Notes: generated by a model from the letters alone, not told the origin. A stretch of DNA of 64,000 nucleotides from Carcharhinus amblyrhynchos (GCA_965287045.1 OZ336874.1:84072001-84136000); one strand, 5' to 3'. Shown: positions 12,607 to 62,313, counted from the stretch's first letter. Translations and numbers: made by a program.

Positions 12607-13278
12607 TGGTGTGGAGTTGCCAGCATTGGACTAGCGTAAGCACAGTAAGAAGTCTCACAACACCAAGTTAAAGTCCAGCGAGTTTATTTGGTCGCACAAG
12701 CTTTCAGAATATCACTCCTTCTTCAGGTGAGTGAGGAGTTGTGTTCACAAACAGGACTTATATAGACACAAACTCAAGAGAACACTCCTGTCTGGTGCCT
12801 TCTTCCTATCAGGGAACACTTCAGCGGTCACAGGCGTTCAACCTCTGATCTTCGAGTAAGCGTTCTCCAAGGCAGCCTTCACGACACATGACAACACAGA
12901 ATCACTGAGCAGAAACTGATAGCCAAGTTCCGCACACATGAGGATGTCCTCAGCCAGTACCTTGGGTTCATGTCACGCCATCTGTAACTCGCACGACTTG
13001 CTTGGACTTGCGAAATCTCACTAACTGTCCTGGCTGGAGACAATGCACATCTCTTTAACCTATGCTTAACCCTCTTTCCATTCACATTGTCTGTACCTTT
13101 AAGACTTGATTACCTGTAAAGACTTGCATTCCAACCTCTTGTAAATTGAGTTTGTGTCTATATATTTTCTGTTTGTGAACTCAACTCCTCACTCACCTGA
13201 AGAAGGAGTGACACTCCGAAAACTTGTGCTATCAAATAAACCTGTTGGACTTTAACCTGGTGTTGTGAGACTTCTTAT
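12607..13278 (+). mobile_element. Penelope-like element, truncated, with inverted pLTR
   Basis: GIY-YIG C-terminal remnant (EHFSGHRRSTSDLRVSVLQG..EQKLIAKFRTHED); ~12647-12777 is an inverted copy of ~13146-13277; ATTGACAATTGG at 12598-12609 and 13279-13290 as TSD. Confidence 0.9.
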
Positions 13279-14166
13279 ATTGACAATTGGCACAGCAGTG
13301 GAAAAGTTAATGGTTTAGTCATCCACTGGATGGCCAATTAAGTCAGTTAAGTAGCAATTGAAGTCTCCATGTGAGGAGACAGTGGTAAACATTGGCAGTC
13401 GCCCAGCAGATTCCAAGCCTGTGCTCCATGGCTAAGGCAGAGCCCTTAATGGCAATGTCCTTGCAATGTCAGACTCCAGCTTCCTCCAAACATTCTAACC
13501 TATCATCAGAGGTGACCCATCATGAGGCACCCGGCATCTAGTGATGCAGCAGCAGAAATTTATATTACTAGCAGTGACATTGCTGAGTTGCTAGTCCTCT
13601 CATTGAGCTGCCCTAGTTTGAAGGCTGCAACAGCCTCTTAACTGGCTGCTGCTGTCAACATGTAACATTGGTTCATGCTGCCTGCAAAAATTGTGTTGCC
13701 TTCCACTTCTGGCTTCAGCAGTGGGATTTCAAAGTCAATGGCAAAATTCTTCTTTATAATTAACACTGTATGACCTTGGCATGTAGTGTCCTGACCAACT
13801 CAGAGGGCAGATTCTGCAGGGCTACATCTTGATATCAGACTTAGAATTGGGAGAGAAGATTGTATACCCATTTTTTCATGGGCTAAAGTTCAGCGGTTTA
13901 GCAGCTGGAGATTTTGCACCTGTTTCAAGCTTTAGATTTTTAAAGCTGTGATTCGATAAATAGCTTCACTGAGGTATTGGATTTGAAGCAAAATATTTAA
14001 ATTACGCCCTCGCACAACATTGTCTCTTTAATCTAGATTTCTTCTATTTGCTTTGTATACTCATTTGGAATAAAAGTAATGGGAGCTTCAGAGACAAAGC
14101 AAATCTTAACATGCAGCAGGCTTTGTATATTTTTGCTGTAATACTTATAATATCTTTTTAGTATTG

Positions 14167-14285
14167 GGGACAAATTTTCCGTTCCATTCACCACATGAAT
14201 TGGGAGGGATGAACTATGGAAAGGTCCATTGACTTCAGGTGGGATTTTCCAATTTTGGGGTGAACATGGCCAGAAAATCCCACCC
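14167..14285. mobile_element. Short Harbinger-like MITE
   Basis: Ends GGGGACAAATTTTC ... GAAAATCCCACCC; right end shared with 30826-31017. Confidence 0.5.
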
Positions 14286-14581
14286 ATAGTATTTTATTTA
14301 CAATTCTTGATACATTTCTGACAGTTTTCATTTGCACTTATGACAAACATATTCTTAAAGCACCTCAAACATAGTTGTTTGTAGGAATAAGGTGAAAGTA
14401 AGCATTTTAGGGAAACTGAACAATTCCTGAGGTGGTGCTAGGGCCACAATTTACTGACGTAATAATGAATATGCTACCACACTGAGCCAAGCTGACAAAT
14501 TATAGGTACACCAGATTTAAATATTGAAACTGTGTGGGGCACATCACTTGAGAAGAATATGTTTGAGAACTGATTTCAGTT

Positions 14582-15722
14582 AGAAGTCTCACAACACCAG
14601 ATTAAAGTCCAACAGGTTTATTTGGTAGCAAAAGCCACTAGCTTTCAGAGCGCTGCTCCTTCGTCAGGTAAGTGGGAGTTCTGTTCACAAACAGGACATA
14701 TAAAGACACAAACTCAATTTACAAAATAATTGGAATGCGAGTCTTTACAGGTAACAAGTCTCAAAGGTACAGACAATGTGAGTGAAGAGAGCGTTAAGCA
14801 CAGGTTAAAGAGATGTGTAGTGTCTCCAGACAGGACAGTTAGTGAGATTTTGCAAGCCCAGGCAAGCCATGGGGGTCACAGATAGTGTGACGTGAACCCA
14901 AGGTCCCAGTTGAGGCCATCCTCGTGTGTGTGGAACTTGGCTGTCAGTCTCTGCTCAGCAACTCTGTGCTGTCATGTGTCGTGAAGGCCGTCTTGGAGAA
15001 CACTTACCCAAAGATCAGAAGATGAATGCCCATGACCACTGAAATGTTCCCCAACACAAAGAGAACACTCTTGCCTGGTGATTGTCCAGCGGTGTTCATT
15101 CATCTGCTGTCGTAGCGTCTGCATGGTCTCCCCAATGTACCATGCCTTGGGACATCCTTTCCTGTAGCGTATCAGGTAGACAGTGTTGGCCGAGTTACAA
15201 GAGTATGTACTGTGTACCTGATGGATGATGTTGTCTCGTGAAATGATGGCATCCATGTTGGTGATCCGGCATGTCTTGCAGAGGTTGCTGTGACAGGATT
15301 GTATGGTGTCGTGGTCACTGTTCTCCTGAAGGCTGGTAGTTTGCTGCAGACAATTGTCTGTTTGAGGTTATGCAGTTATTTGAATGCAAGAAGTGGGGGT
15401 GTGGGGATGGCCTTGGTGAAATGTTCGTCTTCATCAATGACACATTGAACGCTCTGGAGAAGATGTCGTAGCTTCTCAACTTCAGGGAAGTACTGGACGA
15501 CGAAGGGTACAATGTCCACCGTGTCACGTGTTTGTCTTCTGAGGAGGTTGATGCGGTTTTTCGCTGTGGCACGTTGGAACTGTTGATCGATGAGTCAAGC
15601 GCCATATCCTGTACTTATGAGGGCATCTTTCAGCGTTTGGAGGTGTCTGTTGCAATCCTCCTCATCTGAGCAGATCCTGTGTATATGGAGGGCTTGTCCG
15701 TAGGTTAACAATCTCCACATCA
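14582..15722 (-). mobile_element. Penelope-like retroelement, 5'-truncated (thumb region, GIY-YIG endonuclease, pLTR)
   Basis: ORF 14972-15256: YSCNSANTVYLIRYRKGCPKAWYIGETMQTLRQQMNEHR..VGEHFSGHGHS; pLTR matches 12607-13278. Confidence 0.93.
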
Positions 15723-18869: not shown

Positions 18870-21750
18870 ATGGGAATTTGGACAGCTTCCGCTGGCCTAA
18901 GTTGAAAGAAAGTATCGATGAAAGATGGAAATTTTTATTGAAAACTCTGACCAATGACATTTAATACTGTTAGACTTAACATCTTCCAAGACTCTGCAAC
19001 AGTTCCTACAGATTGGAAGGTAGCTAATGTAACCCTACTATTTAAAATGGGAGGTAGAGAGAAGACAGAGAATTATAGATCAGTCAGTCTGATGCCGGCA
19101 GTAGGGAAAATGTGAGAATCCATTATCAAAGATTTTTTAACAAAACACTTGGAAAACAGTGGCAGGATTGGACAGAATCAGCATGAAAGGGAAATCATGC
19201 CTGACAAATCTATGGAATTTTTTTGAGGATGTAACTAGTAGAGTTGATGAGAGGGAGCCAGTGGATGTCGTTTATTTGGACTTTCATAAGAACATAAGAA
19301 ATAGGAGCAGGAGTAGGCCATCTAGCCCTTCGAGCCTGCCCCACCATTCAGTAAGATCATGGCTGATCTGTCGTGGCTCAGTTCCACATTCCCGCCCTCT
19401 CCCCATAACCCTTAATCCCCTCTCTTATCAAAAACCCATCAACCCGCTTCTTAAAAATATTTAGCGAGGCAGCCTCCACCACCTCAACGGGCAGAGAATT
19501 CCAGAGATTCACCACCCTTTGAGTGAAGAAGTTCCTCCTCAACTCCATTCTAAACCGCCCCCCCTTTATCTTGAGGCTGTGCCCCCTAGTCCTACTGTCT
19601 TTTTTGAGCGGGAAGAGTCTCTCCACCTCTATCCTATCCATCCCATTCATCATCTTATACGTCTCAATGAGATCTCCCCTCATTCTTCTAAACTCTAACG
19701 AGTACAAGCCTAGTTTATTCAGCCTCTCCTCATAGCTCAACCCCCTCAACTCCGGTATCAGCCTAGTAAACCTCCTCTGCACTCCTTCCAAGGCCAAAAT
19801 ATCCTTGCGTAAGTGCGGCGACCAAAACTGCACACAGTACTCCAGCTGCGGCCTCACCAATGCCCTATACAGCTGCAGCAAGACCTCCTTACTTTTATAT
19901 TCAATCCCCCTCGCTATGAAGGCCAGCATCCCATTAGCCTTCCTGACCACCTGCTGCACCTGCAGGCTGGGTTTTTGCAACTCATGCACAAGGACCCCGA
20001 GGTCCCTCTGCACCGTCGCCTGCTGCAGTTTTTCGCCACGTAAGTAATAGTCCTTCCTACCATTATTCCTACCAAAGTGGACCACCTCGCACTTGCCAAC
20101 ATTAAATTCCATTTGCCAGTTCCTGGCCCATTCGCCCAGCCTATCTAGATCCTTCTGCAGACTCTCCACACCCTCCGCGCAATTTGCCGTTCCACCAATC
20201 TTGGTGTCATCAGCAAATTTCGACACCATACACTCGGTTCCCTCCTCCAGATCATCTATATAAATGGTAAATAGCTGATGCCCCAGCACCGACCCCTGGG
20301 GCACTCCACTAGTCACCAACTGCCAATCCGAATAGCACCCATTAACCCCCACTCTTTGCCTCCTATTTGGCAACCAATCCTCTATCCACGCTAACACCCT
20401 ATCCCCAACTCCATGCCCCATTACCTTCTGCAATAACCTCTTGTGAGGTACCTTGTCAAATGTCTTCTGAAAATCAAGAAAGACCACATCCACCGGCTCT
20501 CCTCTATCCACCTCCCTAGACACATCCTCATAGAACTCCAATAAATTTGTCAGACACGACTTCCCCTTAACGAAACCGTGCTGCGTCTGCTCTATCAAGC
20601 AATTCCCCTCAAGATGCTTTCGGAAGGCTTTTGACAAAGTCGCACATAAGACAATTGTGTGTAAAATTAAAGCACATGGGATTGGGGGTAGTGTATTGAG
20701 ATGGATAGAAAACTGGAAGCAAAGAGTAGGAATAAACAAGTAATTTTTAAAATGGCAGGCAGCGACTGGTAGTGTAGTACAGGGATCAGTGCTGGGACCC
20801 CAGCCATTGACTACATATATTAATGATTTAGATGAACAAACTAAATGTAATATCTGCAAATTTGAAGACACAAAGCTGGAAGGGAGGGTGAGCTCTGAAG
20901 AGGATGCAGAGATCCTTCAGTGTGATTTGGAGAAGTTGAGTGAGTGGGCAAATGAATGGCAGATGCAGTTTAATTTGGATAAATGTAAGGTTGCCCACTT
21001 TGGTAGCAAAAGCGGGAATACTATACAAATACTATCCAAATGGTCATAAATTAGGAGAGGAGGAACGTGCAATGAGGCCTCATATACCTGTCACTGATGG
21101 TAAGCATGGAAGCTCAGCAAGCAGTAAAAAAGGCAAATGCTATGTTTACCTTCAAAGTGAGAGGATTCGTGTATAAGAGCAGGGATATCTTAACGCAATT
21201 ATTTACGACCTTGGTGAGGCCATACCTGGAATGCTGTGCGTAGTTCTGATCTCCTTATCTGAGGAAGGATGTTCTTGCTTGAGATGCAATGCAGAGGTTT
21301 ACCAGACTGATTCCTGGTGTGGCAGAACTGATGTTTGAGGAGGGATTGAGTCAGTTAGGATTGTATTCACTGGAGTTCAGAACAATGAGAGGGCAGCTCA
21401 TAAAACTTATAAAATTCTTGTCAAAAACTAGACAGGGTAGACGCAAGGAAGGTGCTCCTGATGGTGAGGATGTCCAGAACCAGAAATCACAATCTGAAGA
21501 TACGGGGTAGATGGTTTAGGACAAAGATGACAAGTTTCTTCACCCAGAGAGTGGTCAGTCTGTGGAATTCACTACCAAAGAAAGTAGTTGCATGTTTTCA
21601 AGAAGCAGGGGTGAAGGGGCTCAAATTATCTGAAGGGAAGGTGGGATCAGGCTATTGAGTTGGATAATGATCATAATGAATGGTGGAGCAGGCCCAAAGG
21701 GCCAAATGGCCTCCACCTGCTCCTATTTTCTATGTCCTTTGTTTCTATTT
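18870..21750 (+). mobile_element. Old CR1 ORF2 (RT to 3' UTR) split by a young antisense CR1
   Basis: DWKVANVTLLFK; KSCLTNL..VDVVYLDF resumes as KAFDKV at ~20620; YINDLDE; RFTRLIPG; FFTQRVVSLWNSLP. Confidence 0.9.
19285..20617 (-). mobile_element. Young CR1 LINE, 5'-truncated, with an uninterrupted RT-domain reading frame
   Basis: Open frame from KHLEGNCLIEQTQHGFVKGKSCLTNL through SGVPQGSVLG and KFADDTK to the stop at 19378; (TTCTTATG)n tail; CTTTC at both junctions. Confidence 0.96.
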
Positions 21751-25065: not shown

Positions 25066-27642
25066 AGTATGAAGGGAAATTCCACACCAACTCTTCTCTC
25101 CCTCCCCCACCTACAGCTTCCTCACTGAATCAGAGGCAGAGGCTGGGCAGGACCTGTAGATTTTTAAGGCATATTTCAGAGCTATTATATACAAATGCAT
25201 TGAGTCAGTGAAGGTTTTAGTTAGAATCAATTCATTGCTGAAAAGCCACAACATTAATGCTAAATAGGTTTCCATCTTTTTTTTTAACTAGAAATTTAAT
25301 TGAAGTTACCAAAGTCCTAGGGGATACCATTGGACCCAACATTCAGCTTATTCCAGTCAGCCTTCCATGTCAGGCTGACTGGAAGACACATTTCACATTA
25401 GGCAGGCCTTAATTGGTCACCCAGCATGGAATCGCATTGAGAAGACAATCTCGCCCGGGAGCAGATTCTATATCTGCTTCCCAGCTCGTCGGCTTGGTAC
25501 ATGTGCCATGTGTGAAATTCAGGCACTTGCATTGTATAAATTTTGAACCATCATTTTTTGTGAAATTAATTGGGGGTACCAGAATAGTTAATTATTCTTT
25601 TACATTTGAGAAGCAAACAAGCATGTTTACCTCCTTTATCTAATTTTCTTCCTCATTGATTTTCTCTTCAATTTTCTCCCACTGGCTGTTCTTATTTAAG
25701 GGCAGCAAGTCACCAACATATAGGGCTAATTTTCATCCTTGAGTTGAATTCGGGATAGCTCCCTGTTCAACCTGCCCACAGGAAAGTGCCAGTAATGAAA
25801 ATATTTTCATTGTAGAGAGCAGATGAATGCTACAACCTGGTCAGCCTACCCAGGAGATAGTTCAAAGGCTGAGAACCCAAAAATCCATGACTGTACTAAA
25901 GTACCTGAGCCCCAGGGGACACATTGCTTCTTAGACAGCTTTAGCTTTCTGACCTCTTCTGTCACTTGCACAATGTTTATTGTCACAACATAAAATAGGG
26001 TTTCAAATGCTTGCAGTTTCACCTACTGATACTTTAATAGGATCTAGCTGATTTATATTTTTATTAGCCTGTACTAAAAAGGAGGTTTTTCTCTAACAAG
26101 GTAGAAAATTATCAATGAATGACTTTTTTCAAAGCTTTTTATACATCTTGTTGTCACTATAGTGTTCATTGATCCATATAGTGTATAGAGGATGAATGGG
26201 TATGGAAGAACCATAGCTTGGCATGGGCCATGAGTGCCCAAAGGAGATGGTTGGGGTCATACCTTGGCATGGGGCATAAAGAAGACCTTCTTCAAAAGGT
26301 GCCCTTGAAGTGTTGTGATCCAAAACGCTTTGAAAAACTGAATCAATGAATATTAATGTAAGAAAAGGCTTGTATTGTTCACAAAAATGACTGTATTACC
26401 TTAATTAAGAAGAAACTAACATTTTAATTTATTTCTGTCATGCTGTGGTCATTTGTGCATCGCATCCCATCCTTAGCCTGGTAATAGTTTATATCAATAT
26501 CACTCTTAAAACAGTTACTGTGTCATACAAAGCAACAGCCTGATATAACTTTTATAATGGTAGTTCCATTGGTTATGCTGTAGTGACAGACAGATGCAGG
26601 AATGGGGGTGCTGAAGATTCAAGATCAGGCTTGTTATGCCCCTTTACATTTGACCACTTTGAAACACAACATTGCCTGTCTTCTGAAGCAGAGATAGAGC
26701 TAATTGTAATATGGATTAATTTTTCATTAAGGGGAATTTCGAACAGGAACTTGGAGTAATTCAGTACTCAATTGGGAATTCACACTTTATTAATATCCTT
26801 AATTCTACAAAGGTAAATAGTCAGCAAGGCTCTGAGAAACTTTAGCTGGATTGCACCAGAAACATAATTTCAATATTTTATGATTTTATGAATTTAAATT
26901 AAAAAAAAACTCTTATTCTGAATCTTTGGTTATTAAACATGGAAGTAAAATAGTAGGTGAAATCTTTGAGTTTAATAGGCTGTAGTGTAGTCAGTTTAGT
27001 TAGCACATTATTTTGAACAGGTTATGAAATCCTCTGCTTTTCTTCTTTGTCAGTGTGTTAAGAATCTAATGAGGCCAATATCTTTAAAAAAATTAGTTTT
27101 GAAATATAGTTGCTGCACCCGTAACATAATTAAATGTCCCAAGGTGCTTTGCAGAAACATTATAAAACAAAATCCGATTGCCCTATTAGATGATTCTTGA
27201 CTGTCAGTCACCAGCATTTATTCTTACCACAAATATTTTTATAACTAATGAAAGAATGAAAATGAACAAAAAGGCATACAATGTTTTTAATGCCTCACTG
27301 ATGACAGCAACATCCTGGCTATTAATCTTAAATTCTTGGAGATTCCAGAACAATCCTGGGTAATGTCAAACTTAGCCTATTGTGTTCTGATGCATATCTG
27401 AATACCTTTGTCTTTTCTCTTCCCTATAAAGTCTTACCCTATTTAAACTAGATATTTATCTAACTGTTGAGCAGAATGAATGAAAACAGCATCATGTGCT
27501 GATAGTCATTTCAACATTTTCACTGTTTTACAAAGCACACAGTATAATGCATAACTTTGAATCTGAGTTCTTTAATTCTGCACTCACAATGCAATTCAAA
27601 CATTTAACATCTCCTTGAAAATCTGAATCATGTAGTCTCTCA

Positions 27643-27731
27643 GTAAGAAGCCTCACAACACCAGGTTAAAGTCCAATAGGTTTATTTGATATCACAAGCT
27701 TTCGGAATACTGCACCCTCATTAGGTGAGTC
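27643..27731 (-). mobile_element. Penelope pLTR terminal fragment
   Basis: TAAGAAGCCTCACAACACCAGGTTAAAGTCCAA..AAGCTTTCGGA matches the termini at 12647 and 14582. Confidence 0.85.
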
Positions 27732-29269: not shown

Positions 29270-30410
29270 GAAGGAAAGGAACATTGATAGATCAAGTGAA
29301 TGGCAAACTATGATAGATCAAGTTCAATGCACATTCATTTTGGCCACAAGAAATGATAGATAAAGTACTTTCTAAATGATGAGAAACTACAAACCATGGA
29401 GGGAAGGTAAATGTACAGGTCCGTGTACATAAATTACTGAAAGTTGCTACAAATAATAATTAATGGTATGTTGACCTTTATCTGAAAGGACATGCAATGC
29501 ATAGATTGAAGTTATGATAGTTATATAATTCTCTGCAAATGGGATGCTGGCCTTCATAGCGAGGGGGATTGAATATAAAAGTAGGGAGGTCTTGCTGCAG
29601 CTGTATAGGGCATTGGTGAGGCCGCAGCTGGAGTACTGTGTGCAGTTTTGGGCGCCGCACCTGCGCAAAGATATTTTGGCCTTGGAGGGAGTGCAGAGGA
29701 GGTTTAGTAGGCTGATACCGGAGTTGAGGGGGTTGAGCTATGAGGAGAGGCTGAATAAACTGGGCTTGTACTCGTTAGAGTTTAGAAGAATGAGGGGAGA
29801 TCTCATTGAGACGTATAAGATGATGAATGGGATGGATAGGATAGAGGTGGAGAGACTCTTCCCGCTCAAAAAAGACAGTAGGACTAGGGGGCACAGCCTC
29901 AAGATAAAAGGGGGGCGGTTTAGAACGGAGTTGAGGAGGAACTTCTTCACTCAAAGGGTGGCGAATCTCTGGAATTCTCTGCCCGTTGAAGTGGTGGAGG
30001 CTGCCTCGCTAAATATTTTTAAGACGCGGGTTGATGGGTTTTTGATAAGAGAGGGGATTAAGGGTTATGGGGAGAAAGCGGGAAAGTGGAACTGAGCAGC
30101 GACAGATCAGCCATGATCTTATTGAATGGCGGGGCAGGCTTGAAGGGCTAGATGGCCTACTCCTGCTCCTATTTCTTATGTTCTTATGTTCTTATCTGGA
30201 CACCACAGGAAGGATATTTGGCTTGGAATGGGCTGCAGTGCCAATTTCATCAGAATAACTTTCCAGCTAACTGGTTAAGTTATGAGGGCAGTGCATAGAT
30301 TAAGCTTGTGTTCTCTCAAGTACAGAACACTAAATAGTTGCATTAATGTCCTCAGGAAGATTAAAGAAGAGAAACTATTCCTCCAAATGACCAAGTCCAG
30401 AACAAGGGGC
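29270..30410 (+). mobile_element. Old CR1 3' fragment hosting a young CR1
   Basis: Degenerate ORF2 on both sides of the insert (HFGHKK and GMLTFI before; RKDI..LE and KSRTRG after). Confidence 0.65.
29537..30195 (+). mobile_element. Young CR1, 5'-truncated (same family as 19285-20617)
   Basis: 183-aa open frame almost identical to the C-terminus of the 19378 ORF; (TTCTTATG)n tail; TCTG at both junctions. Confidence 0.95.
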
Positions 30411-31124: not shown

Positions 31125-31345
31125 AGGTGGCACAGTGGTTAGTACTGCTGCCTCACAGTGCCAAGGACCCAAGTTCAATTCCGACCTTGCATGATTGTGT
31201 GGAGTTTACGAATTCTCCCTGTATCTGCATGGGTTTCCGCTGAATGCTCCGGTTTACTCCCACAGTCCAGAGATCTGCAGATTAGGAGGGTTGTCCAAGC
31301 TGAATTGCCCCTTAGTATCCAAAGATGTGTAGATTAGGTCAATGG
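31125..31345 (+). mobile_element. HE1-type V-SINE, 5' two-thirds
   Basis: GGTGGCACAGTGGTTAG A box, GTTCAATTCC B box, V-domain. Confidence 0.85.
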
Positions 31346-32939: not shown

Positions 32940-33330
32940 ATTAGTACCCTTTTGCCGCTGAGACAAGATGCAATGAGGTTCATGCTGCAGCTCGAACTTT
33001 GATGGGGCAGACCACCGGGATGCTGAAGATGAAGTTGCAGTGCTTGGACCCGTCTGGTTGAGCCCTGCAATACAATCCATGGAGGGTGGCATGCATCGTG
33101 GTCGCCTGCTGTACCCTGCACAACCTGGTGCTGCAATAGGGGGAGGAACTGCCTGAGGTGGAGATGAAGGAAGAACGGCACATTTCTTCCAATGAGGAGG
33201 ATATCAATGGGAATGAAGCTGAGATCTCGAGTGAGAGGATGTTTGCCACGAGGCATGGCAATGTGCAGATGAAGCAAGTGAACTTGGGACGGACTCATTG
33301 CACTAGATTTACAGGAGGGTGATGAGGACA
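32940..33330 (+). mobile_element. Harbinger transposase (HARBI1-like DDE) C-terminal remnant
   Basis: NEVHAAARTLMGQTTGMLKMKLQCLDPSG*ALQYNPWRVACIVVACCTLHNL followed by an acidic tail. Confidence 0.85.
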
Positions 33331-33332
33331 TT

Positions 33333-33749
33333 CATAAGAACATAAGAACATAAGAAATAGGAGCAGGAGTAGGCCATCTAGCCCTTCGAGCCTGCCCCGC
33401 CATTCAATAAGATCATGGCTGATCTGTCGTGGCTCAGTTCCACTTTCCCGCCCTCTCCCCATAACCCTTAATCCCTTCTCTTATCAAAAACCCATCAACC
33501 CGCTTCTTAAAAATATTTAGCGAGGCAGCCTCCACCACTTCAACGGGCAGAGAATTCCAGAGATTCACCACCCTTTGAGTGAAGAAGTTCCTCCTCAACT
33601 CCGTTCTAAACCGCCTCCCCTTTATCTTGAGGCTGTGCCCCCTAGTCCTACTGTCTTTTTTGAGCGGGAAGAGTCTCTCCACCTCTATCCTATCCATCCC
33701 ATTCATCATCTTATACGTCTCAATGAGATCTCCCCTCATTCTTCTAAAC
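33333..33749 (-). mobile_element. Young CR1 3' end (same family as 19285-20617)
   Basis: Near-identical to ~19285-19690; ACATTC at 33328-33333 and 33748-33753 as TSD. Confidence 0.95.
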
Positions 33750-34519: not shown

Positions 34520-37300
34520 ATCTTTTACATCCACAGCAGAGGTAGAGGCAGCCTGCTGTCTGCCATGCCCTGTTGTCTGTGATGGCGTCCTCTGGAGAGG
34601 CAAGAGCTTGGGTGCCTTGGCCTGTTTTCGGGCCCTGCTATCTGCCACCCTCCTTGGTCTGTGGAGCTGGAGTTGCTACATGGGAAAAGGGGCTTCCGAT
34701 GGGTGGGACACTCCAGAGTCAACTGGATAGATGGCCCCAGTGTGTGCTCCAGCTGATCGTCCTCTTTATGTGTGCCCGAGGATCCCTGGCTTCCTCCTTG
34801 GGGTAGGTGGGCAGCTGTCCACTGGCATTGGCACTGATGGATTCCAGAAAGTGGCTGTACCATGGCATGCGTTTCCTGCAGCAGTGCAGAACAGAAGTCT
34901 TGGACCAAAGTTTCCATAGCAACCAACCTCCAAGCTGTGTTGTCCTCGGTGCATTGAAGTGTCAGCACAATCACCTCAGACAGAACATGGATGGATTCCT
35001 CCATGCAACCTTTAAATCCAAGGAGTGCATCAGACATTACTTCCTGATTTTCCCAAGTTTGCCTTTAGAGCTCCAGCAACTGAGTCATGACTGAGTCCAG
35101 AGTCTAGTCACCTAACAGGGACCCAGCAGATTCCTGGCCTCCAGCAATATTCTGAGTTCCGACACCCTGGGATGTCCCTGTCTCTACCTGCTATTGATCA
35201 GACAGTGTGATATGCTCGCCAGATTGTGATTCTAAGGCCACTCTAGAACTAGGTCTCACCAAGGTGTGTGCCTCAATGCTGGTGGAGGGTGTGGGTGAAT
35301 GCTGTGATGGTTCTTCCACTTTGGGCTCTGAGAAATCATGGTCTGTGCTGCTGTCAGGGCTGGTGTTGAGGACTTGGCCGGTGGACCTTTTGGCTGCGTC
35401 CCAAATGTGCCTGTGAAAGAGAGTCATTAATGCATGGCATGGCCTGATAAAAAGGAAATATGACTCACAACATTGTTGATCGATGGGTGAATTCAAACTT
35501 GATTTAGGCCACTGAATTCACTATCAGCACAGGAACAGTGCATGTTCACACCAGCCAGTTGCATGACTCTCTCCTTAAAGTCTGAGGTCAGTGAGTTCTG
35601 GCATCTCTCCATACCTCTGGAGTCTTACCTCTGAGTGTGAGTTGAGAATTATGAGAAGAGCGACTCACCCTAGTGAAACAGAGGAGATCATTCATCCTAT
35701 TCCAGCATTAGATGGTTGTCCTCTCCTTCAGAGCATTGGCATTGACCACTGTTGCCACCATCTGATGACACCAAGATGGCAGGGTTGGCGGGTACGGAAC
35801 TGGATTGTCAGGTGATACAACAGGATATAGATAGGTTGGTGCAGTGGGCAGATAGGTGGCAGATGGCATTTAATCCTGACAAATGCGAGGTGATGCATTT
35901 TGGACGGAATAATGCAGAGAGGAGCTATGTGATAAAAGGTAGGCCGATTAGGAGTATAGACATACAGAGGGACCTGGGAGTGCAGGTTCACAAATCCATG
36001 AAGGTTGCGTCACAAGTAGAGAAGGTTGTTAGGAAGGCTTATGGGATGTTAGCCTTTATAGGAAGGGGCATAGAGTATAAAAGCTGCCGTCTAATGCTTC
36101 AGTTGTACAGAACGTTGGTTAGACCGCATTTGGAGTACTGCGTCCAGTTCTGGTCACCTTACTACCGGAAGGACGTGGAGTCTCTGGAAAGGGTGCAGAG
36201 GAGGTTTACCAGGATGTTGCCTGGCATGGGGGGACTGGGTTACGAGGAGAGATTGAAGAAACTGGGGCTATTCTCCTTGGAAAGACGGAGATTGAGAGGG
36301 GACATGATAGAAGTATATAAGATGCTGAAGGGAATAGATTAATAGATTAATAGACTAAGGGGATAGGTTAATAGTGAGAGACTGCTCCCTAGACTGGGTA
36401 CGAACACGAGAGGTCATCATTTAAGGGTGAGGGGGGGAGGTAGAATTTGGAGGTGAGAAGAAGGTTCTTTACGCAGAGAGTTGTGGGGGTCTGGAATGCG
36501 CTACTGAGTAGGGTGGTGGAGGCAGGAACGTTGGACTCGTTTAAGATGCAGTTAGATAGGCACATGAGTGAAACGAGAATGGAGGGATATGGTAGGGGCT
36601 ATTAAATAGGGTTAAACCTCGGGAGACACCGGAAGGGCAGGCTGTATGATTAATATTTTTTGTCTTTATTCCACAGGTGGAGGTCCACCTCGTGTCAAGC
36701 GAGGGGCATGCACACGGCAGGTCGTGCATGGGCTGCTCTTGGAAGTCCAGGAGTGGCCTAGTACTTCATGTCGGTGTGTGTGCTTGATCCTGGACCGGTA
36801 GACGGGCGCCGCAACAGCTCAGTGACTAGCACTGCTGGCTGTGCAGACACATGGATTTGGGCCTGTTTCTGTGGGAGTTTGCGCATTCTCCCTGTGGTTG
36901 CGTGGGTTTCCTCCGGGCGCTCCGGTTTCCTCCCACACCCCAAAGATGTGCTCTTAGGCTGATCGGTTTTTACCAAATTGACACTATTTCTTCCCTGAAT
37001 CTGACTGAGTAGGGTTCCATTCGTAGACACGCAGGGTAGAATAGGTGTAGGGTGATGCGGCGGCGCGGGCTCGTTGGGCCGAAGGGCCTGTTTCCCGTGC
37101 TGGGTTGTTCTTTGTTCTTTGTTCTTTGTTCTTTGTTCTTTGTTCTTATCTCCTATGCTGGATCAATAGCCTTGCTGGCAGGATTTCATCTTCAGTGTGA
37201 ATAGATGACCTCAGAGCAGGGCTCCACAGTGTCAAGCAGTCTCTGTAGGGAAGCATCAGAGATATTCAAGGCACATTTTCTGGCAGTCATCACTGAAGAG
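34520..37300 (-). mobile_element. Harbinger Myb/SANT-like accessory gene remnant, convergent with the transposase and split by a CR1
   Basis: ARKCALNISDASLQRLLDTVE..EVIY (37290-37200); after removing the CR1 it reads PA*EMVATVVNANALKERTTI*CWNRMNDL followed by a GTGAGT donor. Confidence 0.7.
35762..37147 (+). mobile_element. CR1 LINE with a long composite 3' UTR containing a V-SINE-derived segment
   Basis: DDTK..WQMAFNPDKCEVMHFG..LEYCVQFWSP; ORF2 stop at 36603-36605; V-domain at ~36805-36985; (TTTGTTC)n tail; ATCT at both junctions. Confidence 0.9.
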
Positions 37301-37520: not shown

Positions 37521-38600
37521 GGGGAGCAATTCTCCCATCCTGCTGAAGGCCAGGATATTTAGGCGGCACCCGATCCGTGGGTTGCACACTGGGCATCCAG
37601 TGGAGGGAAGGTGATGGCCAATTGGTATTATCACTAGACTATTATTCCAGAAGTTCAGCCCATGTTCTGGGAACGCAGGTTCGAATCCCACTACGGCAGA
37701 TGGTGAAATCAATTTTTTAAAAATCTGAAATTAAGGATCTACTGATGACTATGAAACCATTGTCAATTGTCGGAAAAACCCATCTGGTTCACTAATGTCC
37801 TTTAGGGAAGGAAATTTGTCACTCTTATTCAGTCTGGCCTACATGTGACTGCAGACCCACTGCAATGTGGTTGACTCTCAACTGCCCTCCAAGGGCAACT
37901 AGGGATGGGCAATAAATGCTGGACAGCCAGCAATGCCCATGTCCTATGAACGGATTTTAAAAAATCCAGTCCTGAGCATGTCTCCCAGCAGTGGATTTCT
38001 GGCACTGTCAGCTCTGTGCAGGAAATCGGTGCAGAGCCACATCATTCATGTTCGTGGAAATTTAAATCTAATTTAAATGTAATTAGTGGGCCCAGAGATT
38101 TCAGTGCCAGCCCTACTAGCTTCTTCCCACCCCTCCCCCCACCAGTATTTTGCTCCAGCGGGGTTTAAAGTAGCTCCCCACTTTCGGGGAGCTGGCAGCC
38201 TGACCCCGCTGGAGTGAAGTAAGGGCAATTGGGACCCCCCCCACAAGAGGATTAGGTCCCCTGAGCATTGGCACCTTGGCACTACCAAAGGGGCAAAGTG
38301 CTAATTCCCAGGGACGCCTTGGCACAGCCTGTTGGGCATGAGGCACTACCAAGAGGGTGGAGCTCAATGGGGCAACCTCATGGGAGGCAGGATCTCCAAG
38401 GGTGATCTGTGGGTTTGAGTGTCCCACTGACACTCTGCATTTGGGCTGAGTGAGAGAGGGAGGGCGGCCAGCGGTGGGGCTAACCATCAGGGTCGGGAGG
38501 GAAGCCTGCTGGGGGGGGTCGGGGCTGCAGGGAGGGGTCAGGATGGCAGGGTGGGGGGTGTGGTTCAGGATTGCGTGCAAGTACAAAATACAGGATTTAC
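37521..38600. mobile_element. Harbinger-like non-autonomous element related to 7150-8236, with nested SINE
   Basis: TIR-like GGGGAGCAATTCTCCCA; GC-rich GGCAC/GTGCC-rich interior antiparallel to ~7480-8100. Confidence 0.5.
37602..37963 (+). mobile_element. Full-length tRNA-derived SINE with family B LINE tail
   Basis: A box TGGCCAATTGG, B box GGTTCGAATCCC, tail CAAGGGCAACTAGGGATGGGCAATAAATGCTGG; TSD ATCCAGT at 37595-37601 and 37964-37970. Confidence 0.88.
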
Positions 38601-39687: not shown

Positions 39688-40985
39688 ATTGATTTGATTT
39701 ATTATTGTCACATGTATGAACATACAGTGAAAAGTATTGTTTCTTGCGTGCTATACAGATAAAACATACCATTCATAGAGAAGGAAACGAGAAGGTGCAG
39801 AATGTAGTGTTACAGTCATAGCTAGTTGTGGAGAAAGATCAACTTAATGCAAGATAAGTCCATTCAAAAGTCTGTCAGCAGCAGGAAAGAAGCTGTTCTT
39901 GAGTTGGTTGGGATGTGACCTCAGACTTTTGTATCTTTTTCCTGGAAGAAGGTGGAAGAGAGAATGTCCAGGGTGCTTGGGGTCCTTAATTATGCTGGCT
40001 GCTTCGCTGAGGCAGTGGGAAATGTCAACAGAGTCAACGGATGGGAGGCTGGTTTGGGCTACATTCATGATCTTTGTAGTTCCTTGCGGTCTTGGGCAGA
40101 GCAGGAGCCATACCAAGCTGTCATACAACCAGAAAGAATGCTTTCTGTGGTTCAGGTGTAAAAGTTGGTGAGAGTCGGAGCTGACATGACAAATTTCCTT
40201 AGTCTTCTGAAAAAGCAGAGATGTTGGTGGGTTTTCTTAACTATAATATCGGACAGGTTGTTGGTGATCTGGACACCTAAAAACTTGAAGCTGTCGACCC
40301 TTTCTACTTCATCCCCATTTATGTAGACAGGGGTATGTTCTCCTTTATGCTTCCTAAGTCAATGACAATCCCTTTCGTTTTGTTGACATTGAGGGAGAGA
40401 TTATTGTTGCCGCACCAGTTCACCAGATTCTGTATCTCATTCCTGTACTCTGTCTCATCAGTGTTTGAGATCTGATCCACTACAGTGGTGTCATCAGCAA
40501 ACTTGAAAATTGAATTGCAGGGGAATTTGGCCACACAGTCATAGATGTATAAGGAGTATAGTAGGGGACTGAGAACACAGCCTTGTGGGACACCAGTGCT
40601 GAGGATGATCGTGGAGGAAGTGTTGTTGCCTATCCTTACTGATTGTGGTCTGTGAGTTAGGAAGTTCAGGATCCAATCGTGGAGGGAGGTGCCGAGGCCC
40701 AGGCCAGAGTTTGGAGATAAGTTTTGTGGGATTAATAGTGTTGAAGGCCGAGCTGTAGTCAATAAATAGGAGTCTGACATAGGCGTCCTTGTTATCTCGG
40801 TGTTCCAGGGTTGAGTGCAGGATCAAAGAGATGGCGTCTGCTGTGGACCCCTGTTACAGCAGTAGGCAAGCTGCAGGGGATTTAGATAGTCCGGGAGACT
40901 GGAATTGATTTGTGCCATGACTAGCCTTTTGAAGCACTTCATAATGATGGATGTCAGAGCCACCATCCAAGAGTCATTAAGGATT
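39688..40985 (-). mobile_element. Rex1/Babar-type LINE RT and 3' end
   Basis: [58 protein letters not shown]; (GATTT)n tail. Confidence 0.93.
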
Positions 40986-43649: not shown

Positions 43650-43897
43650 ATGTACAAGGCAGGATTTTTACACAGAGGGTGATGGGTGCCTGGAACTCAC
43701 TGCCAGGGAGGTAGTGGAAGCAGATGCGATAGTGAATTCCAAGGGGCATCTTGACAAATATATGAATAGGATAGGAACGGAGGGATATGATCCCTGGAAG
43801 GGTCGGGGGTTTTAGTTAAGTCGGGCAGCATGGTTGGAGCAGGCTTGGAGGCCGAAGGGCCTGTTCTTGTGCTGTAATTTGCTTTGTTCTTTGTTCT
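43650..43897 (+). mobile_element. CR1 3' end
   Basis: FFTQRVMGAWNSLP; GGCCGAAGGGCCTGTT tail with TTTGTTC repeats. Confidence 0.85.
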
Positions 43898-44310: not shown

Positions 44311-44727
44311 GACTGGAATACTGTGTACAAAGATCTAGTGATCTCTGCAGCTTAAATTTCCCCTTTTGTTAGTTTGAATCTGGCACCAATGTCAAGGGAA
44401 TCTCTAGATGTTCTGCAAAGGAGAAATCATCAAACAAGGTAAACAACCAATCATATGGAAGTATTCTCACAAACAACAAGGTCGGATATAAAATGCCCTG
44501 ATTGTCCTTCCCTTCTTATTACATTTTACAGGGAGCAAAATAAATGATTGTGTTATGCAGATGGGATTAAGGTAGAAACTGAAATATCATAAATTCTTTA
44601 AAAATAATTATTTTTTAAAAAAAGTTCATCATAATAGAGGGATTTGACATTTCAGAAATATAAAATTAGACTTTCAGAACCAGAAAGCTTTTTTTTAGCA
44701 AAAATTAAGGATTTAATAAACTAATTA

Positions 44728-46030
44728 CATAAGAACATAAGAAATAGGAGCAGGAGTAGGCCATCTAGCCCTTCGAGCCTGCCCCACCATTCAATAAGAT
44801 CATGGCTGATCTGAAGTGGATCAGTTCCACTTTCCCTCCTTCTCCCCATAACCCTTAATTCCCTTGTCTGTCAGAAACCTATCTACCCGTGACTTAAGTA
44901 TATTTAGCGAAGTAGCCTCCACCACTTCAACGGGCAGAGAATCCCAGAGATTCGCCATCCTTTGAGTGAAGAAGTTCCTCCTCAACTCTGATCTAAACTC
45001 CACGCCCCCCCCCCCTTATCTTGAGGCTGTGTCCTCTCGTCCTGCTATCCTTCCTAAGCAGGAAGAATCTCTCTACCTCTACCCTATCCATCCCTTTCGT
45101 TATCTTATACGTTTCTATAAGATCCCCCCCCCATCCTTCTAAACTCCAACGAGTACAGACCCAGTCTATTTAGTCTCTCTTCATAGGCCAACTCCCTCAT
45201 CCCCAGTATCAGCCTAGTGAACCTCCTCTGCACTCCCTCCAAGGCCAATATATCCTTCCGCAAGTGCGGCGACCAAAACTGCGCACAGTACTCCAGCTGC
45301 AGCCTCACCAGTACCCTGTACAGTTGCAGCAAGACCTCCCTACTTTGATATTCTATCCCCCTCGTGATAAAGGCCAACATTCCATTCGCCTTCTTGATCA
45401 CCTGCTGCACCTGCAGACTGGGTTTTTGCAACTCGTGCACAAGGACCCCCAGGTCCCCCTGCACCGTAGCATGTTGCAGCTTTTTGCCTTTTAAATAATA
45501 ATCCCTCCTACTATTATTTCTGCCGAAGTGGATAACCTCACACTTGCTAACATTATACTCCATCAGCCAGGTCCTCGCATACTCGCTCAGCCTATCCAGA
45601 TCTCTCTGCAGACTTTCCACACCCTCCATACAATTTGCTTTTCCACTCATCTTTGTGTCATCAGCAAATTTCGTCACCCTACACTCAGCCCCTTCCTCCA
45701 GGTCATCTATATAAATGGTAAACAGTAGAGGCCCCAGCACCGATCCCTGCGGCACTCCACTAGTCACCAACTGCCAACCAGAATAGCACCCATTGATACC
45801 AACTCTTTGCTTCCTATTAGATAGCCAATCCTCCACGCTAAAACCTTACCCCCAACTCCGTTCACCCTAACCTTTTGCAGCAACCTTTTGTGAGGCACCT
45901 TATTAAACGCCTTTTGGAAATGTAAAATCACCACATCCACCAGTTCCCCTCTGTCTACAGCACTAGTCACATCCTCATAGAAATCCAATAAATTCGTCAA
46001 ACACGACTTCCCCTTAACGAATCTGTGCTG
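44728..46030 (-). mobile_element. Fairly young CR1 (sister subfamily of 19285-20617) with frameshifts
   Basis: ORFs 45764-46000, 45105-45836 and 44821-45003 tile the RT domain; same (TTCTTATG)n tail. Confidence 0.95.
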
Positions 46031-47101: not shown

Positions 47102-47177
47102 TGATGTGGAGATGCTGGCGTTGGACTGGGGTAAACACAGTAAGAAGTCTGACAACACCAGGTTTAAACCTGGTGTT
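47102..47177. mobile_element. Minimal Penelope terminus (tail plus fold-back)
   Basis: TGATGTGGAGATGCTGGCGTTGGACTGGGGTAAACACAGTAAGAAGTCT matches ~12607-12655; ends in a 24-bp perfect palindrome. Confidence 0.85.
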
Positions 47178-47928: not shown

Positions 47929-48825
47929 TTGCTGATGACACCAAAGTCGGAGGAGTGGTAGATAGTGAAGAGGGGTGTCATAGTTTACAGAGAGACTTGG
48001 ACAAGTTGCAGAGCTGGGCCGAGAGGTGGCGGATGGAGTTTAATGCGGAAAAGTGTGAGGTGATTCACTTTGGCAGGAATAACAGATGTGTAGAGTATAG
48101 GGCTAACGGTAGGACTCTAAATAGTGTTGATGAACAGAGGGATCTAGGTGTATGTGTACATAGATCCCTGAAAGTTGGGAATCAAGTAGATAAAGTTGTT
48201 AGGAAGGCATACGGTGTCTTGGCGTTTATTGGTAGGGGGATTGAATTTAGGAGCCGCAACGTCATGTTGCAACTGTACAAAACTCTGGTGCGTCCGCACT
48301 TGGTGTATTGTGTGCAGTTCTGGTCCCCACATTATAGGAAGGATGTGGAGGCATTGGAGAGGGTGCAGAGGAGGTTTACCAGGATGTTGCCTGGTACGGA
48401 GGGAAGGTCCTATGAGGAGAGGCTGAGGGATTTGAGGTTGTTTTCGTTAGAAAGAAGGCGGCTAAGAGGGGACCTTATTGAAACATACAAGATGATTAGA
48501 GGTTTAGATAGGGTGGACAGTGATAGCCTTTTTCCTCGGATGGAGAAAGCTAGCACAAGGGGGCATAGCTTTAAATTAAGGGGTGGTAGTTATGGGACGG
48601 ATGTCAGAGGTAGGTTCTTTACCCAGAGGGTGGTGAGGGATTGGAATGCCCTGCCTGCTGCAGTTGTAAATGCGCCTAGTTTGGGGGCGTTTAAGAGATC
48701 CGTGGATAGGTTTATGGATGGAAAGGGATTGGTTTAGGTTAGAGGGTCATTGCTTTTTTAATTGGTTGGCGCAACATTGTGGGCCGAAGGGCCTGTTCTG
48801 CGCTGTAATGTTCTATGTTCTATGA
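47929..48825 (+). mobile_element. Young CR1 of another subfamily, 5'-truncated, open frame
   Basis: ADDTKVGGVVDSEE..WRMEFNAEKCEVIHFG..FFTQRVVRDWNALP, stop at 48737; (TGTTCTA)n tail. Confidence 0.95.
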
Positions 48826-52399: not shown

Positions 52400-53836
52400 T
52401 CACAGACATGTTCTTATGCTCTACATGAATGCCAGAATGCTGAGCCCAGTTGGAGACCATACCAGAACAACAGCAGGCCGCTGGTCAGGGTCAGGACATA
52501 GCCACTCATTGGTCTGAGGAGGGGGTGCCAGAAAATGACGGAGAAGGAGACCTCAGCTGTACAGGGCTCGCATGCCCTATAATGAGCTACCGGACACTGT
52601 GCCGCTGGAGACTCTGCTTGAGTGTGGAAACAGTGCAGGACCTGTGCATGTTCTCATGTTCCTGGCACCTCAGAGGAGAGGGGGACACCCACTCCCGATG
52701 GCATGAAGGTTATAGCAACTTTGAACTTCTACGGATCATTCCAGATCTTGAGAAGGGACTGGTGTGGCATCTCCCAGTTATCATCCCACAAGTGCATCCA
52801 GGGGGTCACGGAATACTCTGTGTGACCAGGCATCCCAATACATCTATTTTGATCTGGGCCAGGCCCAACAGGATGTCCACACTCCCAGCTTTGCCACCAT
52901 TGCCAATATACCTCCAGTACAGGGGGTTTTATAATGTTGCTTTGTGAGCCCTATGGCATCCCCTTTGTCAGTTGCGAAGGGTTCCACTCCCTCAATATCC
53001 AGATTGTGTACAACCACTGCTCAAATCATGCATGTATATGCACACTATCCATGGAGCGTGCATAACAGTCTCATTCTGCTGCATTCAGATATCACCGGGG
53101 TCTTCGAGGGCCACCTGAAACTGCCAGGGTGGCTTGTCAGGGACAAGGGCTACCCGCTGAATTCATGCCCGATGATGCCAGTGGGGAGGCCTGAGACCTA
53201 GGCAGAAACCTGCGATAATGAGGCCCACGCTGCCGCCCAATCCATCATTGGATATTGCATTGGCCTGCTCAAGATGTGATTATACTGCCTGGACCACTCT
53301 GGCATTGCTCTGCAATATAGTCCCAGAGGGTCATCTGCATAGTGATCTGCTGTGTGCTCCATAACCTGACACAGCAGTGGTGGGATATCCTGGAGCAGAA
53401 AGACCAGGTGCATTCCTCTGAGAAGCATTCTCTCTGAGACGGAGAGAGTGGAGGACAAAGGCAAAGAGGCGATCTTGGGGGGAGTGGGGGGTGCTGCAAC
53501 TGTTGGTAGTGATTTGGGAGGGGCATGATGGCGGGGGGGTGATCAGGTGAGTGGGGGTGTGATGTCTCAGGGGGAGTGAGGAGTGACAGTCTCCCAGTGC
53601 ACTGTATACTCTTGACATAGTTCATTGGGAGATCAAGGCGCTTGTGCAATAGGGTGGTCTTCAGTCGGCTTGCTGGCAAGCTTAGGCCTCACCCCATTCC
53701 CTGCTGGTGAGAATCAGATTGTGACTCATTTTTTGAACTAAGCAACAAGATTTGATTTATCCCCACACCAAAAATATGAGTCTGAAGCTCTCTGGTTTTC
53801 ACATTTGTTTGGCACTTTTTTGGTAAGATCACACCC
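52400..53836 (+). mobile_element. Decayed Harbinger transposon: HARBI1-like transposase and right terminus
   Basis: GISQLSSHKCIQGVT, KGFHSLNIQI, YPWSVHNSLIL, GWLVRDKGYPL, NEAHAAAQSII, CLDHSGIALQYSP; terminus GGTAAGATCACACCC; left end not determined. Confidence 0.88.
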
Positions 53837-55250
53837 TCCAAACCATTCAGCCTTTCCTCATAAGATATTCCCTCCACTCCGGGAATCATCCGAGTGAATC
53901 TTCTGTGAACTGCCTCCAATGTAATAATGGCTGGAATTCTTTAACCATTCATGCAGTGCTACCAGTGCCAGGGAGGATTCAAAATTTGGCACTCAGCCAC
54001 ATCCTCATTCACTGCAGCAAGACAGGAGAATCAGCTGGCATGAATGGCCTGAAGAATCCTGGCCAATATCTTTCCTTAAATAAGGAGACCAAGATTGTTC
54101 ATAGCATTCCATAGCAGTCTCACCAATACCTTGTACAGTTGCAGCAAGACTTCGCTACTCTAATACTCCAACCGCTTTGAAATAAGGGCCAAGATTCCAT
54201 TAGCCTTCCTGATTACCTCCTGCATCTGTGCTAGTGTGTTTCACACACAAATACTTCCAAGAGCCTTGGTGTTGCAGCTTCCTGCAGTTTTTCTCCATTT
54301 TAATAATACTATTTTATTCTCCTTTCCAAAATGAACAGCTTCACATTTTCCCACATTATATTCCATTTGCGAACTTCTTGCCACTTAGCTAACTTATCAA
54401 TATCTCTTTCTAAATTGTGTGTTTAAACCCTGTTTCCTGCCCATTAGCCAATTCTCTATCCATGCCAATATACCACCTCCAGCATCATAGACTCTTATGA
54501 CTTAACTTTTTGCAAGGTACCTTGTCGAACACTTTCTGGAAGTCCAAATACAACACGTCTACTGGTTTCCCTCTATACACACTGGTTGTGACCCCTTCAA
54601 AAAATTCCAATAAATTATGGTCAGACACTATTTCCTTTTCATGAAGCCATGCTGCCTCTGCTTGATTAGATTATGACGTTTTAAAAGTACTGCTATTTTT
54701 TCCTTAATTATTGATTCCAACATTTTTCCGACAATAGATGTTAGGCTAATTGGCCGATTTTACCTACTTCTTGCCTCCCTTTTAAAAGTAAAGTTGATTT
54801 ATTAGTCACAAACAGGCTTACATTAACACTGCAATGAAGTTACCGTGAAAATCCCCAATCGTCACACTCCGGCACCTATTCAGGTACACTGAGGGAGAAT
54901 TTAGCACCTAACCAGCACATCTTTCAGACTGTGGGAGGAAACTGGAGCACCCAGAGAAAACCCACACAGACAAAGGCAAATATGCAAACTTCACACAGAC
55001 AATGATCCCAGCCAGGAATCGATCCCAGGCCCCTGGTGCTGTGAGGCATCAGTGCTAACCACTGTGCCACATGCCACCTAGGGATGTCACATTGGCAGTT
55101 TTCCAATCCTTCAGTCCTTCTCCAGGATCCAGGAATGTTTGGAAAATTATATCTACTATCTCTATAGCTACTTTTTTTTTAGCATCTTAGGATGCAAGTC
55201 ATCAGGGCCAGTGGATCTATCTGCCGAGAGCCCCATTAGTTTTTCTAATT
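53837..55250 (-). mobile_element. Old CR1 ORF2 fragments with nested insertions
   Basis: EAVHRRFTRMIPGVEGISYEERLN; degenerate VDVLYLDFQKVFDKVP and QHGFMKRK. Confidence 0.8.
54788..55077 (-). mobile_element. V-SINE with HE1-like head and a different (non-CR1) tail
   Basis: GTGGCACAGTGGTTAGCACTG..GGATCGATTCC head and V-domain; tail CTTCATTGCAGTGTTAATGTAAGCCT..AATAAAT differs from the other HE1 copies. Confidence 0.8.
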
Positions 55251-61901: not shown

Positions 61902-62313
61902 TAAGAACATAAGAAATAAGAACATAAGAAATAGGAGCAGGAGTAGGCCATCTAGCCCTTCGAGCCTGCCCCGCCATTCAATAAGATCATGGCTGATCTG
62001 TCGTGGCTCAGTTCCACTTTCCCGCCCTCTCCCCATAACCCTTAATCCCCTCTCTTATCAAGAACCCATCAACCCGCTTCTTAAAAATATTTAGCGAGGC
62101 AGCCTCCACCACTTCAACGGGCAGAGAATTCCAGAGATTCACCACCCTTTGAGTGAAGAAGTTCCTCCTCAACTCCGTTCTAAACCGCCTCCCCTTTATC
62201 TTGAGGCTGTGCCCCCTAGTCCTACTGTCTTTTTTGAGCGGGAAGAGTCTCTCCGCCTCTATCCTATCCATCCCATTCATCATCTTATACGTCTCAATGA
62301 GATCTCCCCTCAT
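61902..62313 (-). mobile_element. Young CR1 3' end (same family as 19285-20617), inserted in an old CR1 3' UTR
   Basis: Near-identical to ~33340-33740; flanks ~61780-61900 and ~62316-62360 are degenerate CR1 3' end. Confidence 0.95.

Follow-up and report, generated by a model that had tools for sequence, protein, structure and literature searches.

The element at positions 35764–37147 in a stretch of Carcharhinus amblyrhynchos DNA raises the question of how a CR1-type LINE and a V-SINE came to share one 3′ end. Is it a LINE that carries a captured SINE in its own 3′ untranslated region (UTR), as a sequence-only reading had proposed, or were the two joined only at this locus? All positions refer to the whole stretch of 64,000 nucleotides that was analyzed, here called the window. 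The window is repeat-rich vertebrate DNA, containing many CR1-like ORF2 pieces, V-SINE-like copies, and Harbinger-like remnants.

Boundaries of the unit and its host element

The composite unit occupies 35764–37147 on the plus strand and is bracketed by ATCT at 35760–35763 and 37148–37151, the left and right copies of a target-site duplication. The left copy ends in two bases that match the LINE as well, CT being read at the same place in three other ORF2 copies of the window, and the 5′ junction thus has a 2-base microhomology, a usual feature of such junctions. This microhomology accounts for the start at 35762 given in the sequence-only reading, which we shift to 35764; the end at 37147 is retained. 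A 4-base match is expected by chance with a probability of about 0.005. Among other CR1 copies of the window, two have duplications of 4 and 6 bases and a third has none, so the length observed here is ordinary. The 5′ truncation combined with a short target duplication is that of the CR1 group.

The unit interrupts a decayed gene on the minus strand, with its 5′ half at 37153–37296 and its 3′ half at 35642–35761. We take this gene to be Myb/SANT-like on the basis of a motif; Pfam gave no match with either half. The C-terminal piece of a decayed DDE_Tnp_4 (Harbinger-type) transposase lies at 32945–33136 on the plus strand, convergent with the Myb-like gene, and this match (Pfam E = 1.4e-6) supports the Harbinger setting. 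When the unit and one ATCT were excised in silico, the minus-strand host gene read on in frame without an extra residue, just as had been claimed for removal of the unit with ATCT at both ends. The frame described earlier as that of a Harbinger Myb gene is therefore genuine as a frame, whereas its Myb label has no Pfam match. The only duplication found spans ORF2 as well, the SINE part having no target duplication of its own. The one enclosing duplication and the continuous host frame indicate a single insertion event, and it is well supported that the unit is a real composite that entered a decayed Harbinger element in a single step. The proposal that it moved as one RNA is supported by the single target duplication, the continuity of the host frame over the empty site, and the 2-base 5′ microhomology.

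For CpG, ORF2 has an observed/expected ratio of 0.55 and the UTR one of 0.68, compared with 0.15 and 0.26 in the flanks. The ratio is high, in keeping with the sequence-only reading, which had CpGs retained throughout, but the copy is not pristine, since its ORF2 has two lesions.

Several other repeats were recorded in the window. A very young short-tailed CR1 family is present at 19285–20583, 29535–30195, 33333–33749, and 61902–62313, with 97–99% identity; the copy at 33333 lies inside the same Harbinger element as the unit, and an older relative is found at 44703–46030. A second decayed Harbinger-like transposase was recognized by eye at 52400–53700 on the plus strand. A repeat family with inverted copies lies at 12607–15367, 27640–27730, and 47102–47167, and its ORF at 14972–15367 (minus strand) has a YIGET motif, presumably that of a Penelope-like GIY-YIG element. 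Reverse transcriptase remnants at 39688–40822 and 10255–11168 (minus strand) belong to another LINE clade, which we take to be Rex1/L2-like.

The ORF2 and its long 3′ UTR

The LINE part (35764–36605, plus strand) is the 3′ part of a CR1-type ORF2, truncated at its 5′ end inside the reverse transcriptase. It ends with TAA at 36603–36605, the stop already noted. The clade name CR1 is our presumption. Pfam RVT_1 matched the truncated piece weakly, below the cut-off (E = 0.13). The identity to most other ORF2 pieces of the window is 46–69%, and the closest of them is the copy at 47907, with 68%. A second copy of this ORF2 was found in the ENA protein P0011, from a 1799-base contig, which is identical at 107 of 114 and 50 of 53 residues (157/167). 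The two lesions in the window copy, near 36333–36358 and near 36430–36445, are copy-specific: P0011 is open through both sites and terminates at the identical stop position, which indicates that the ORF2 subfamily is multi-copy and that the lesions are private to the window copy. In a tree of seven rows, the focal ORF2, P0011, P0012, and the window copy at 47907 grouped together, apart from three copies of the other young family (support 100/99). Three of the 10 changes in P0011 fall, by codon reading, on CpGs retained in the window copy.

Within 36320–36370 of the ORF2, an insert of approximately 24 nt consists of an 8-base repeat, and three residue changes relative to P0011 cluster just upstream. 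ATTAAA at 36601–36606 overlaps the stop. A spliced, C-terminally extended ORF2 using an acceptor-like site at 36676 was considered and is unsupported, P0011 stopping at the normal stop.

The UTR measures 542 nt from the stop to the end of the terminal repeat; the CR1s at 47907 and 29529 have 87 and 100 nt, respectively, so the earlier estimate of approximately 540 nt versus 90 nt in the other young CR1s was accurate; three further CR1 ends in the window are likewise short. The first module of the UTR (36606–36705) contains a T6 run and a splice-acceptor-like stretch ending at 36676, and the whole spacer (36606–36804) has no other copy in the 64-kb window. The splice-acceptor-like stretch (36650–36676) is strong and may represent decayed terminal repeats of an old tail. 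Positions 36622–36672 faintly resemble a decayed LINE tail with decayed terminal repeats. When the first 70 nt of the UTR were compared with tails, 10 of 500 shuffles reached the score of the best of 10 tails tried, and four profile tests of the trace gave 10, 30, 33, and 149 of 1000. A window-wide search with a tail profile found no intact tail after the stop. The trace is only a hint of an ancient read-through. The single CR1 tail of the sequence-only reading is hence correct as regards intact tails, and a decayed second one is perhaps present right after the stop.

The spacer continues with a 33-bp RNA hairpin at 36706–36783 (plus strand), which is predicted to be stable on the sense strand only. 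Its folding z-score is −6.5 for the sense and −2.0 for the antisense strand, and the corresponding values for the spacer are −5.2 and −1.0. The hairpin contains eight G.U pairs against no A.C mismatch (p = 0.008). A neutrally decaying DNA palindrome would show both kinds of mismatch, and the hairpin has therefore been shaped as RNA, by selection or editing. It went unmentioned in the sequence-only reading. Among 5114 folds of the window, the only more stable ones came from two related repeats at about 7700 and 38130, where both strands fold; the z-scores in this window-wide scan were computed for the 25 most stable folds only. This related, G+C-rich pair (7676–7984 and 38101–38391), with strong folding on both strands, resembles a palindromic MITE. 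As for known RNA classes, Rfam assigned the spacer to no family, its two matches (E = 2.9 and 7.4) being far below the gathering scores, and a crude motif scan found no hammerhead core. ARAGORN found no tRNA gene in the window, nor did Rfam find a tRNA in the focal region. An snRNA, ribozyme, miRNA, or tRNA in the spacer was rejected on these grounds.

The V-SINE-derived part and the tail

Downstream of the hairpin, positions 36804–36985 align with six free SINE copies of the window. The part begins with a remnant of a tRNA-derived V-SINE head (36804–36861), in which the A box (36815–36825) is degraded and the B box is deleted near 36861. The V-domain (36874–36951) departs from the free-copy majority at 8 of 72 sites, and its region has six other matches in the window (75–83% identity, best E = 1e-14). 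The SINE body (36952–37050) can be aligned to the free copies only as far as approximately 36985. The name V-domain is our assumption, the comparison having been made with the free copies of the window. An HE1-like head and an intact V-domain had been proposed for about 36805–36985. The motifs quoted for them occur once each in the window (36815/6 and 36904), and the V-domain is borne out by the free copies; the head match, however, covers only approximately 21 nt and is weak when taken alone, since 7, 7, 35, and 43 of 500 shuffles reach it against four free heads. No special fold was detected in the head and V region (z = 0.19).

Neither an A box nor a B box is found within two mismatches in the focal head, whereas the B box is exact in the free copies at 31125 and 55073, has one mismatch in that at 21829, and is degenerate in that at 44307. 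The reported absence of the B box carried by the free copies at 21829 and 31125 is thus confirmed. Between fixed anchors the focal head measures 40 nt, compared with 54, 55, and 58 nt (14–18 nt shorter), in a comparison with three free copies from which the fourth was omitted because its anchor was mis-set. The body also contains T5 at 36967–36971, a run present in none of the six free copies. T5 terminates Pol III transcription, and this run would therefore stop Pol III before the tail. From these features, the SINE part is predicted to be dead for Pol III in three ways: by its A box, its B box, and the internal T5. With respect to membership among HE1-type V-SINEs, the V-domain and a tail shared with a LINE are present, and a Pol III head, a terminator-free body, and a duplication of its own are absent.

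The SINE-like part shows a CpG observed/expected ratio of 0.70, compared with 0.25 in the six free copies pooled (p = 0.0016), and the young CR1s have 0.47–0.55. Because this value is at the level of the young CR1s, the part would not be an old decayed SINE taken from a flank. The contrast with the free SINEs, which are themselves old and decayed, shows youth, not transport by a LINE as such. Differences from the free majority amount to 8/72 in the V-domain, 11/42 in the head, and 18/34 after the V-domain, the last figure being inflated by a one-base alignment slip, whereas they are even in the free copies (15–17%). Three of the eight V-domain differences are CpGs lost in the free copies. The better preservation of the V-domain may predate the capture.

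The unit ends with a single intact CR1-type tail (37051–37104) containing a stem-loop at 37076–37088, of the same type as the tails at 48764–48824 and 43832–43897, followed by a terminal 7-base repeat (37105–37147) in 6.1 perfect copies. A stem-loop with a tandem 7-base repeat in place of poly(A) is the 3′ end of the CR1 group; the fold alone is not significant (z = −0.7). A tail profile built from two other CR1 ends matches the focal tail with E = 2.7e-5. In pairwise comparisons, the tail scored 55 and 59 against the CR1 ends of 47907 and 43700, 26–35 against three other CR1 ends, and 19–31 against four free SINE tails. It therefore groups with two CR1 tails and not with the free SINE tails, which leaves the earlier view that the LINE had captured its own dependent SINE unsupported. 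The tail type also agrees with the ORF2, the closest ORF2 of the window (47907) bearing the same type, and on sequence grounds the tail seems to fit the ORF2 lineage and not the free SINEs of the window. Accordingly, the captured SINE either belonged to another subfamily or exchanged its own tail for that of the LINE. Another tail variant was noticed in the free V-SINE at 54790–55078 (minus strand), whose 3′ end is unlike those of the other free copies and adjoins a CR1 ORF2 remnant.

Second copies elsewhere were sought among predicted proteins. A search with the antisense frame of the UTR gave one match among eight candidates, the ENA protein P0007, which runs antisense through another CR1 ORF2 and approximately three terminal repeat units, and then through the counterpart of 36962–37105, with 42 of 48 residues identical. 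The flank being a different CR1 ORF2 and not Harbinger, P0007 represents an independent insertion. Its divergence (6/48) is compatible with that of P0011 (10/167; p = 0.21). Three of its six changes fall, by codon reading, on CpGs still present in the window copy, and together with the three of 10 in P0011 they indicate a CpG-rich source element. The residues of P0007 are compatible with T5, whose presence there is suggested by parsimony from the protein and not seen as DNA. The protein ends just before the V-domain, and the loss of the B box is therefore known from one copy only. P0007 and P0011 may derive from different species. The same GD is read antisense after the terminal repeat at 37148–37153 and at residues 143–144 of P0007, which may reflect a weak target preference or coincidence.

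The junction of ORF2 and spacer, searched among predicted proteins in its only open frame, gave two weak, repetitive matches among eight candidates (E = 7.5e-5 and 3.8e-4, with 7–8 short stretches). Of 13 candidates for the read-through frame, two matched, and both matches stop where ORF2 does; the head-V frame had no candidate and no match. These blanks are weak evidence, since they concern predicted proteins only, with 8, 13, and 0 candidates. As regards copy number, ORF2 (P0011) and the body with the tail (P0007) each have a second copy, and the junction has none among predicted proteins. The claim that a LINE lineage captured the SINE is accordingly supported indirectly, by the recurrence of both halves elsewhere, the non-Pol III nature of the SINE, and the lack of an intact tail after the stop, whereas the junction itself is seen in one copy, with no second one in the protein searches.

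Origin of the composite

The unit is probably a 5′-truncated member of a CR1 subfamily in which the native 3′ UTR, approximately 540 nt long, contains a captured V-SINE. The main argument is that a complete and young ORF2 is followed by no intact tail: with an ORF2 as young as P0011 indicates (157/167), a short native tail, if there had been one, should still be recognizable downstream of the stop. LINEs of the stringent type depend on a 3′ stem-loop of their own, as shown for zebrafish L2s (PMC4176376). If this requirement extends to CR1, as we infer, the lack of an intact tail after the stop implies that the RNA behind this copy used the distal tail. A long native UTR also accounts for a repeated, CpG-rich, SINE-derived end that Pol III cannot make, and it needs no lucky switch of template.

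Such a switch is central to the view that the unit is a one-off chimera. Reverse transcription would have started on a separate non-autonomous RNA, consisting of the hairpin, the dead V-SINE, and the tail and made either by Pol II or from a promoter upstream, and would then have moved to a CR1 RNA, joining the families only here. Because ORF2 reaches its stop in full and has no intact tail beyond it, the switch must fall between the stop and the hairpin of the tail, a distance of approximately 40 nt (the CR1 at 47907 has 44 nt here). The single duplication and both second copies are explained in this way without a linked family, and no second junction was seen among predicted proteins, but an additional, hypothetical promoter is required for the non-autonomous partner. 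Precedent exists in chimeras of SINEs and LINEs arising as single insertions, with 113 Alu/L1 cases described; these have the LINE at the 3′ end, the opposite order (10.1101/2025.02.02.635956). On balance, a one-off chimera is unlikely.

It is quite improbable that two events were involved, with an independent SINE-like element (from 36606 or 36804 to 37147) adjacent to or nested with a CR1 piece. No internal duplication and no LINE tail is left on either side, excision of exactly the whole unit keeps the host frame and spacing, and the A box, the B box, and T5 speak against a Pol III SINE; in its favor are the occurrence of the body and tail at another site (P0007) and a chance of about 0.005 for the 4-base duplication, small yet not nil. 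A one-off 3′ transduction, in which a CR1 source read through its tail into a flank with an old decayed V-SINE and inserted a single product, is still less credible, and we regard it as very improbable. The weak trace of an old tail after the stop (10/500 shuffles with 10 tails tried; 10–149/1000 in the profiles) and the resemblance of the splice-acceptor-like spacer stretch to host DNA would be explained. The trace tail, however, is much more decayed than ORF2, and no intact LINE 3′ end follows the stop. Moreover, the SINE part is not CpG-decayed (0.70 vs 0.25), the hairpin has an RNA-level strand asymmetry, and the insertion of the same body and tail elsewhere (P0007) shows that the downstream part is repeated as well. 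A different matter is an ancient read-through at the founding of the family, which remains part of the explanation that we prefer.

According to that explanation, an ancestral source copy of the CR1 subfamily would have gained a sense-oriented V-SINE downstream of ORF2, either because transcription ran past the old tail into a neighboring SINE or because the homologous tails allowed template switching or recombination. ORF2 would then have come to bind the distal tail. With the LINE promoter driving Pol II transcription of the whole unit, target-primed reverse transcription would have copied it. Once the Pol III signals were lost, a SINE RNA bearing the same tail may no longer have been made in competition. 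The V-domain and the sense-strand hairpin would have been kept while the rest drifted. The direction of transfer, from SINE to LINE, is suggested by the tRNA-type head remnant and by the much wider spread of V-SINEs, which range from cnidarians to fish (PMC4824008). A more tentative picture, possible although somewhat doubtful, is that an autonomous elasmobranch CR1 lineage has long carried the whole V-SINE with its Pol III signals purged, the V-domain and the 33-bp hairpin being under selection because they aid the LINE RNA in stability, export, or ORF2 loading.

The conservation of middle domains of SINEs, such as V, over hundreds of millions of years is an open question. If the family is real, it would offer an autonomous element in which the V-domain can be deleted and retrotransposition measured. 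Sequence would have flowed from SINE to LINE, opposite to the usual direction, and annotation of shark repeats would count LINE ends as SINEs. A LINE holding a conserved domain of SINEs would also run contrary to a 2016 paper stating that such domains had not been found in LINEs (PMC5804259), and new V-SINEs with a fresh tail could arise from it. Should the join prove single-copy, the unit would be only an uncommon chimera.

Comparison with known systems

In a search of the openly accessible literature, no CR1 bearing a V-SINE in the 3′ UTR was reported, which is weak evidence of absence. General background and the definition of SINEs follow parts of PMC5499810 and PMC3531059. A Repbase-wide comparison lists SINE bodies derived from RTE and Vingi only, and its accessible part reports no CR1 with a V-domain (PMC5786205). 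The available text of a 2026 survey of the CR1 group makes no mention of such an element; the shark CR1 consensus sequences in its Table S2 may include this subfamily, and a motif search in the first 400 letters of each entry was blank, which is uninformative for 3′ UTRs (PMC13343379).

Among elements that combine SINE and LINE sequence, SINE-related stretches are described in Ingi-3_AC and R4-1_ADi (Ceph/RTE-like, in the 5′ UTR) and in RTE-1_DAn (tRNA-like), and one of these cases is ascribed to LINE-SINE recombination. They resemble the present unit in having SINE-related sequence within a LINE, but belong to other clades, lie in the 5′ UTR where the position is stated, and lack a V-domain in the descriptions available (PMC5786205). 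The Alu/L1 and U6/L1 chimeras share with the unit a SINE and a LINE in the same orientation under one target duplication; in contrast, they have the SINE 5′ and the LINE 3′, mostly with a full-length, intact Alu, and are described as single insertions, whereas here the LINE is 5′, the crippled SINE is 3′, and there are signs of a lineage (10.1101/2025.02.02.635956). In MER6/MER6A, a V-SINE without its head likewise spread as a passenger of another transposable element. The carrier there is a non-coding Mariner DNA MITE of mammals, whereas the SINE part of the present unit ends in the tail needed for reverse transcription and is carried by a coding retrotransposon (PMC6887750).

In sharks and rays, the HE1 V-SINE is listed as sharing its tail with the HER1 LINE (PMC3747384). 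The unit resembles this pair in its tRNA-like head remnant, V-domain, and CR1-type tail with stem-loop and terminal repeat, and free copies occur in the window. HE1 and HER1 share the tail only, whereas here the head remnant and the V-domain lie inside the UTR of the LINE, the Pol III signals are lost, and the tail type departs from that of the free copies. The short-tailed CR1s of the window (47907 and the family at 19285/29529/33340/61916) agree with the unit in the ORF2 C-terminus, tail hairpin, terminal microsatellite, 5′ truncation, short duplication, and a CpG observed/expected ratio of approximately 0.5; unlike the unit, their UTRs are 87–100 nt and contain no SINE part or long hairpin. 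The composite works like a CR1 and falls outside the V-SINEs as a member; most likely, it represents a CR1 subfamily that holds in its UTR a captured V-SINE dead for Pol III.
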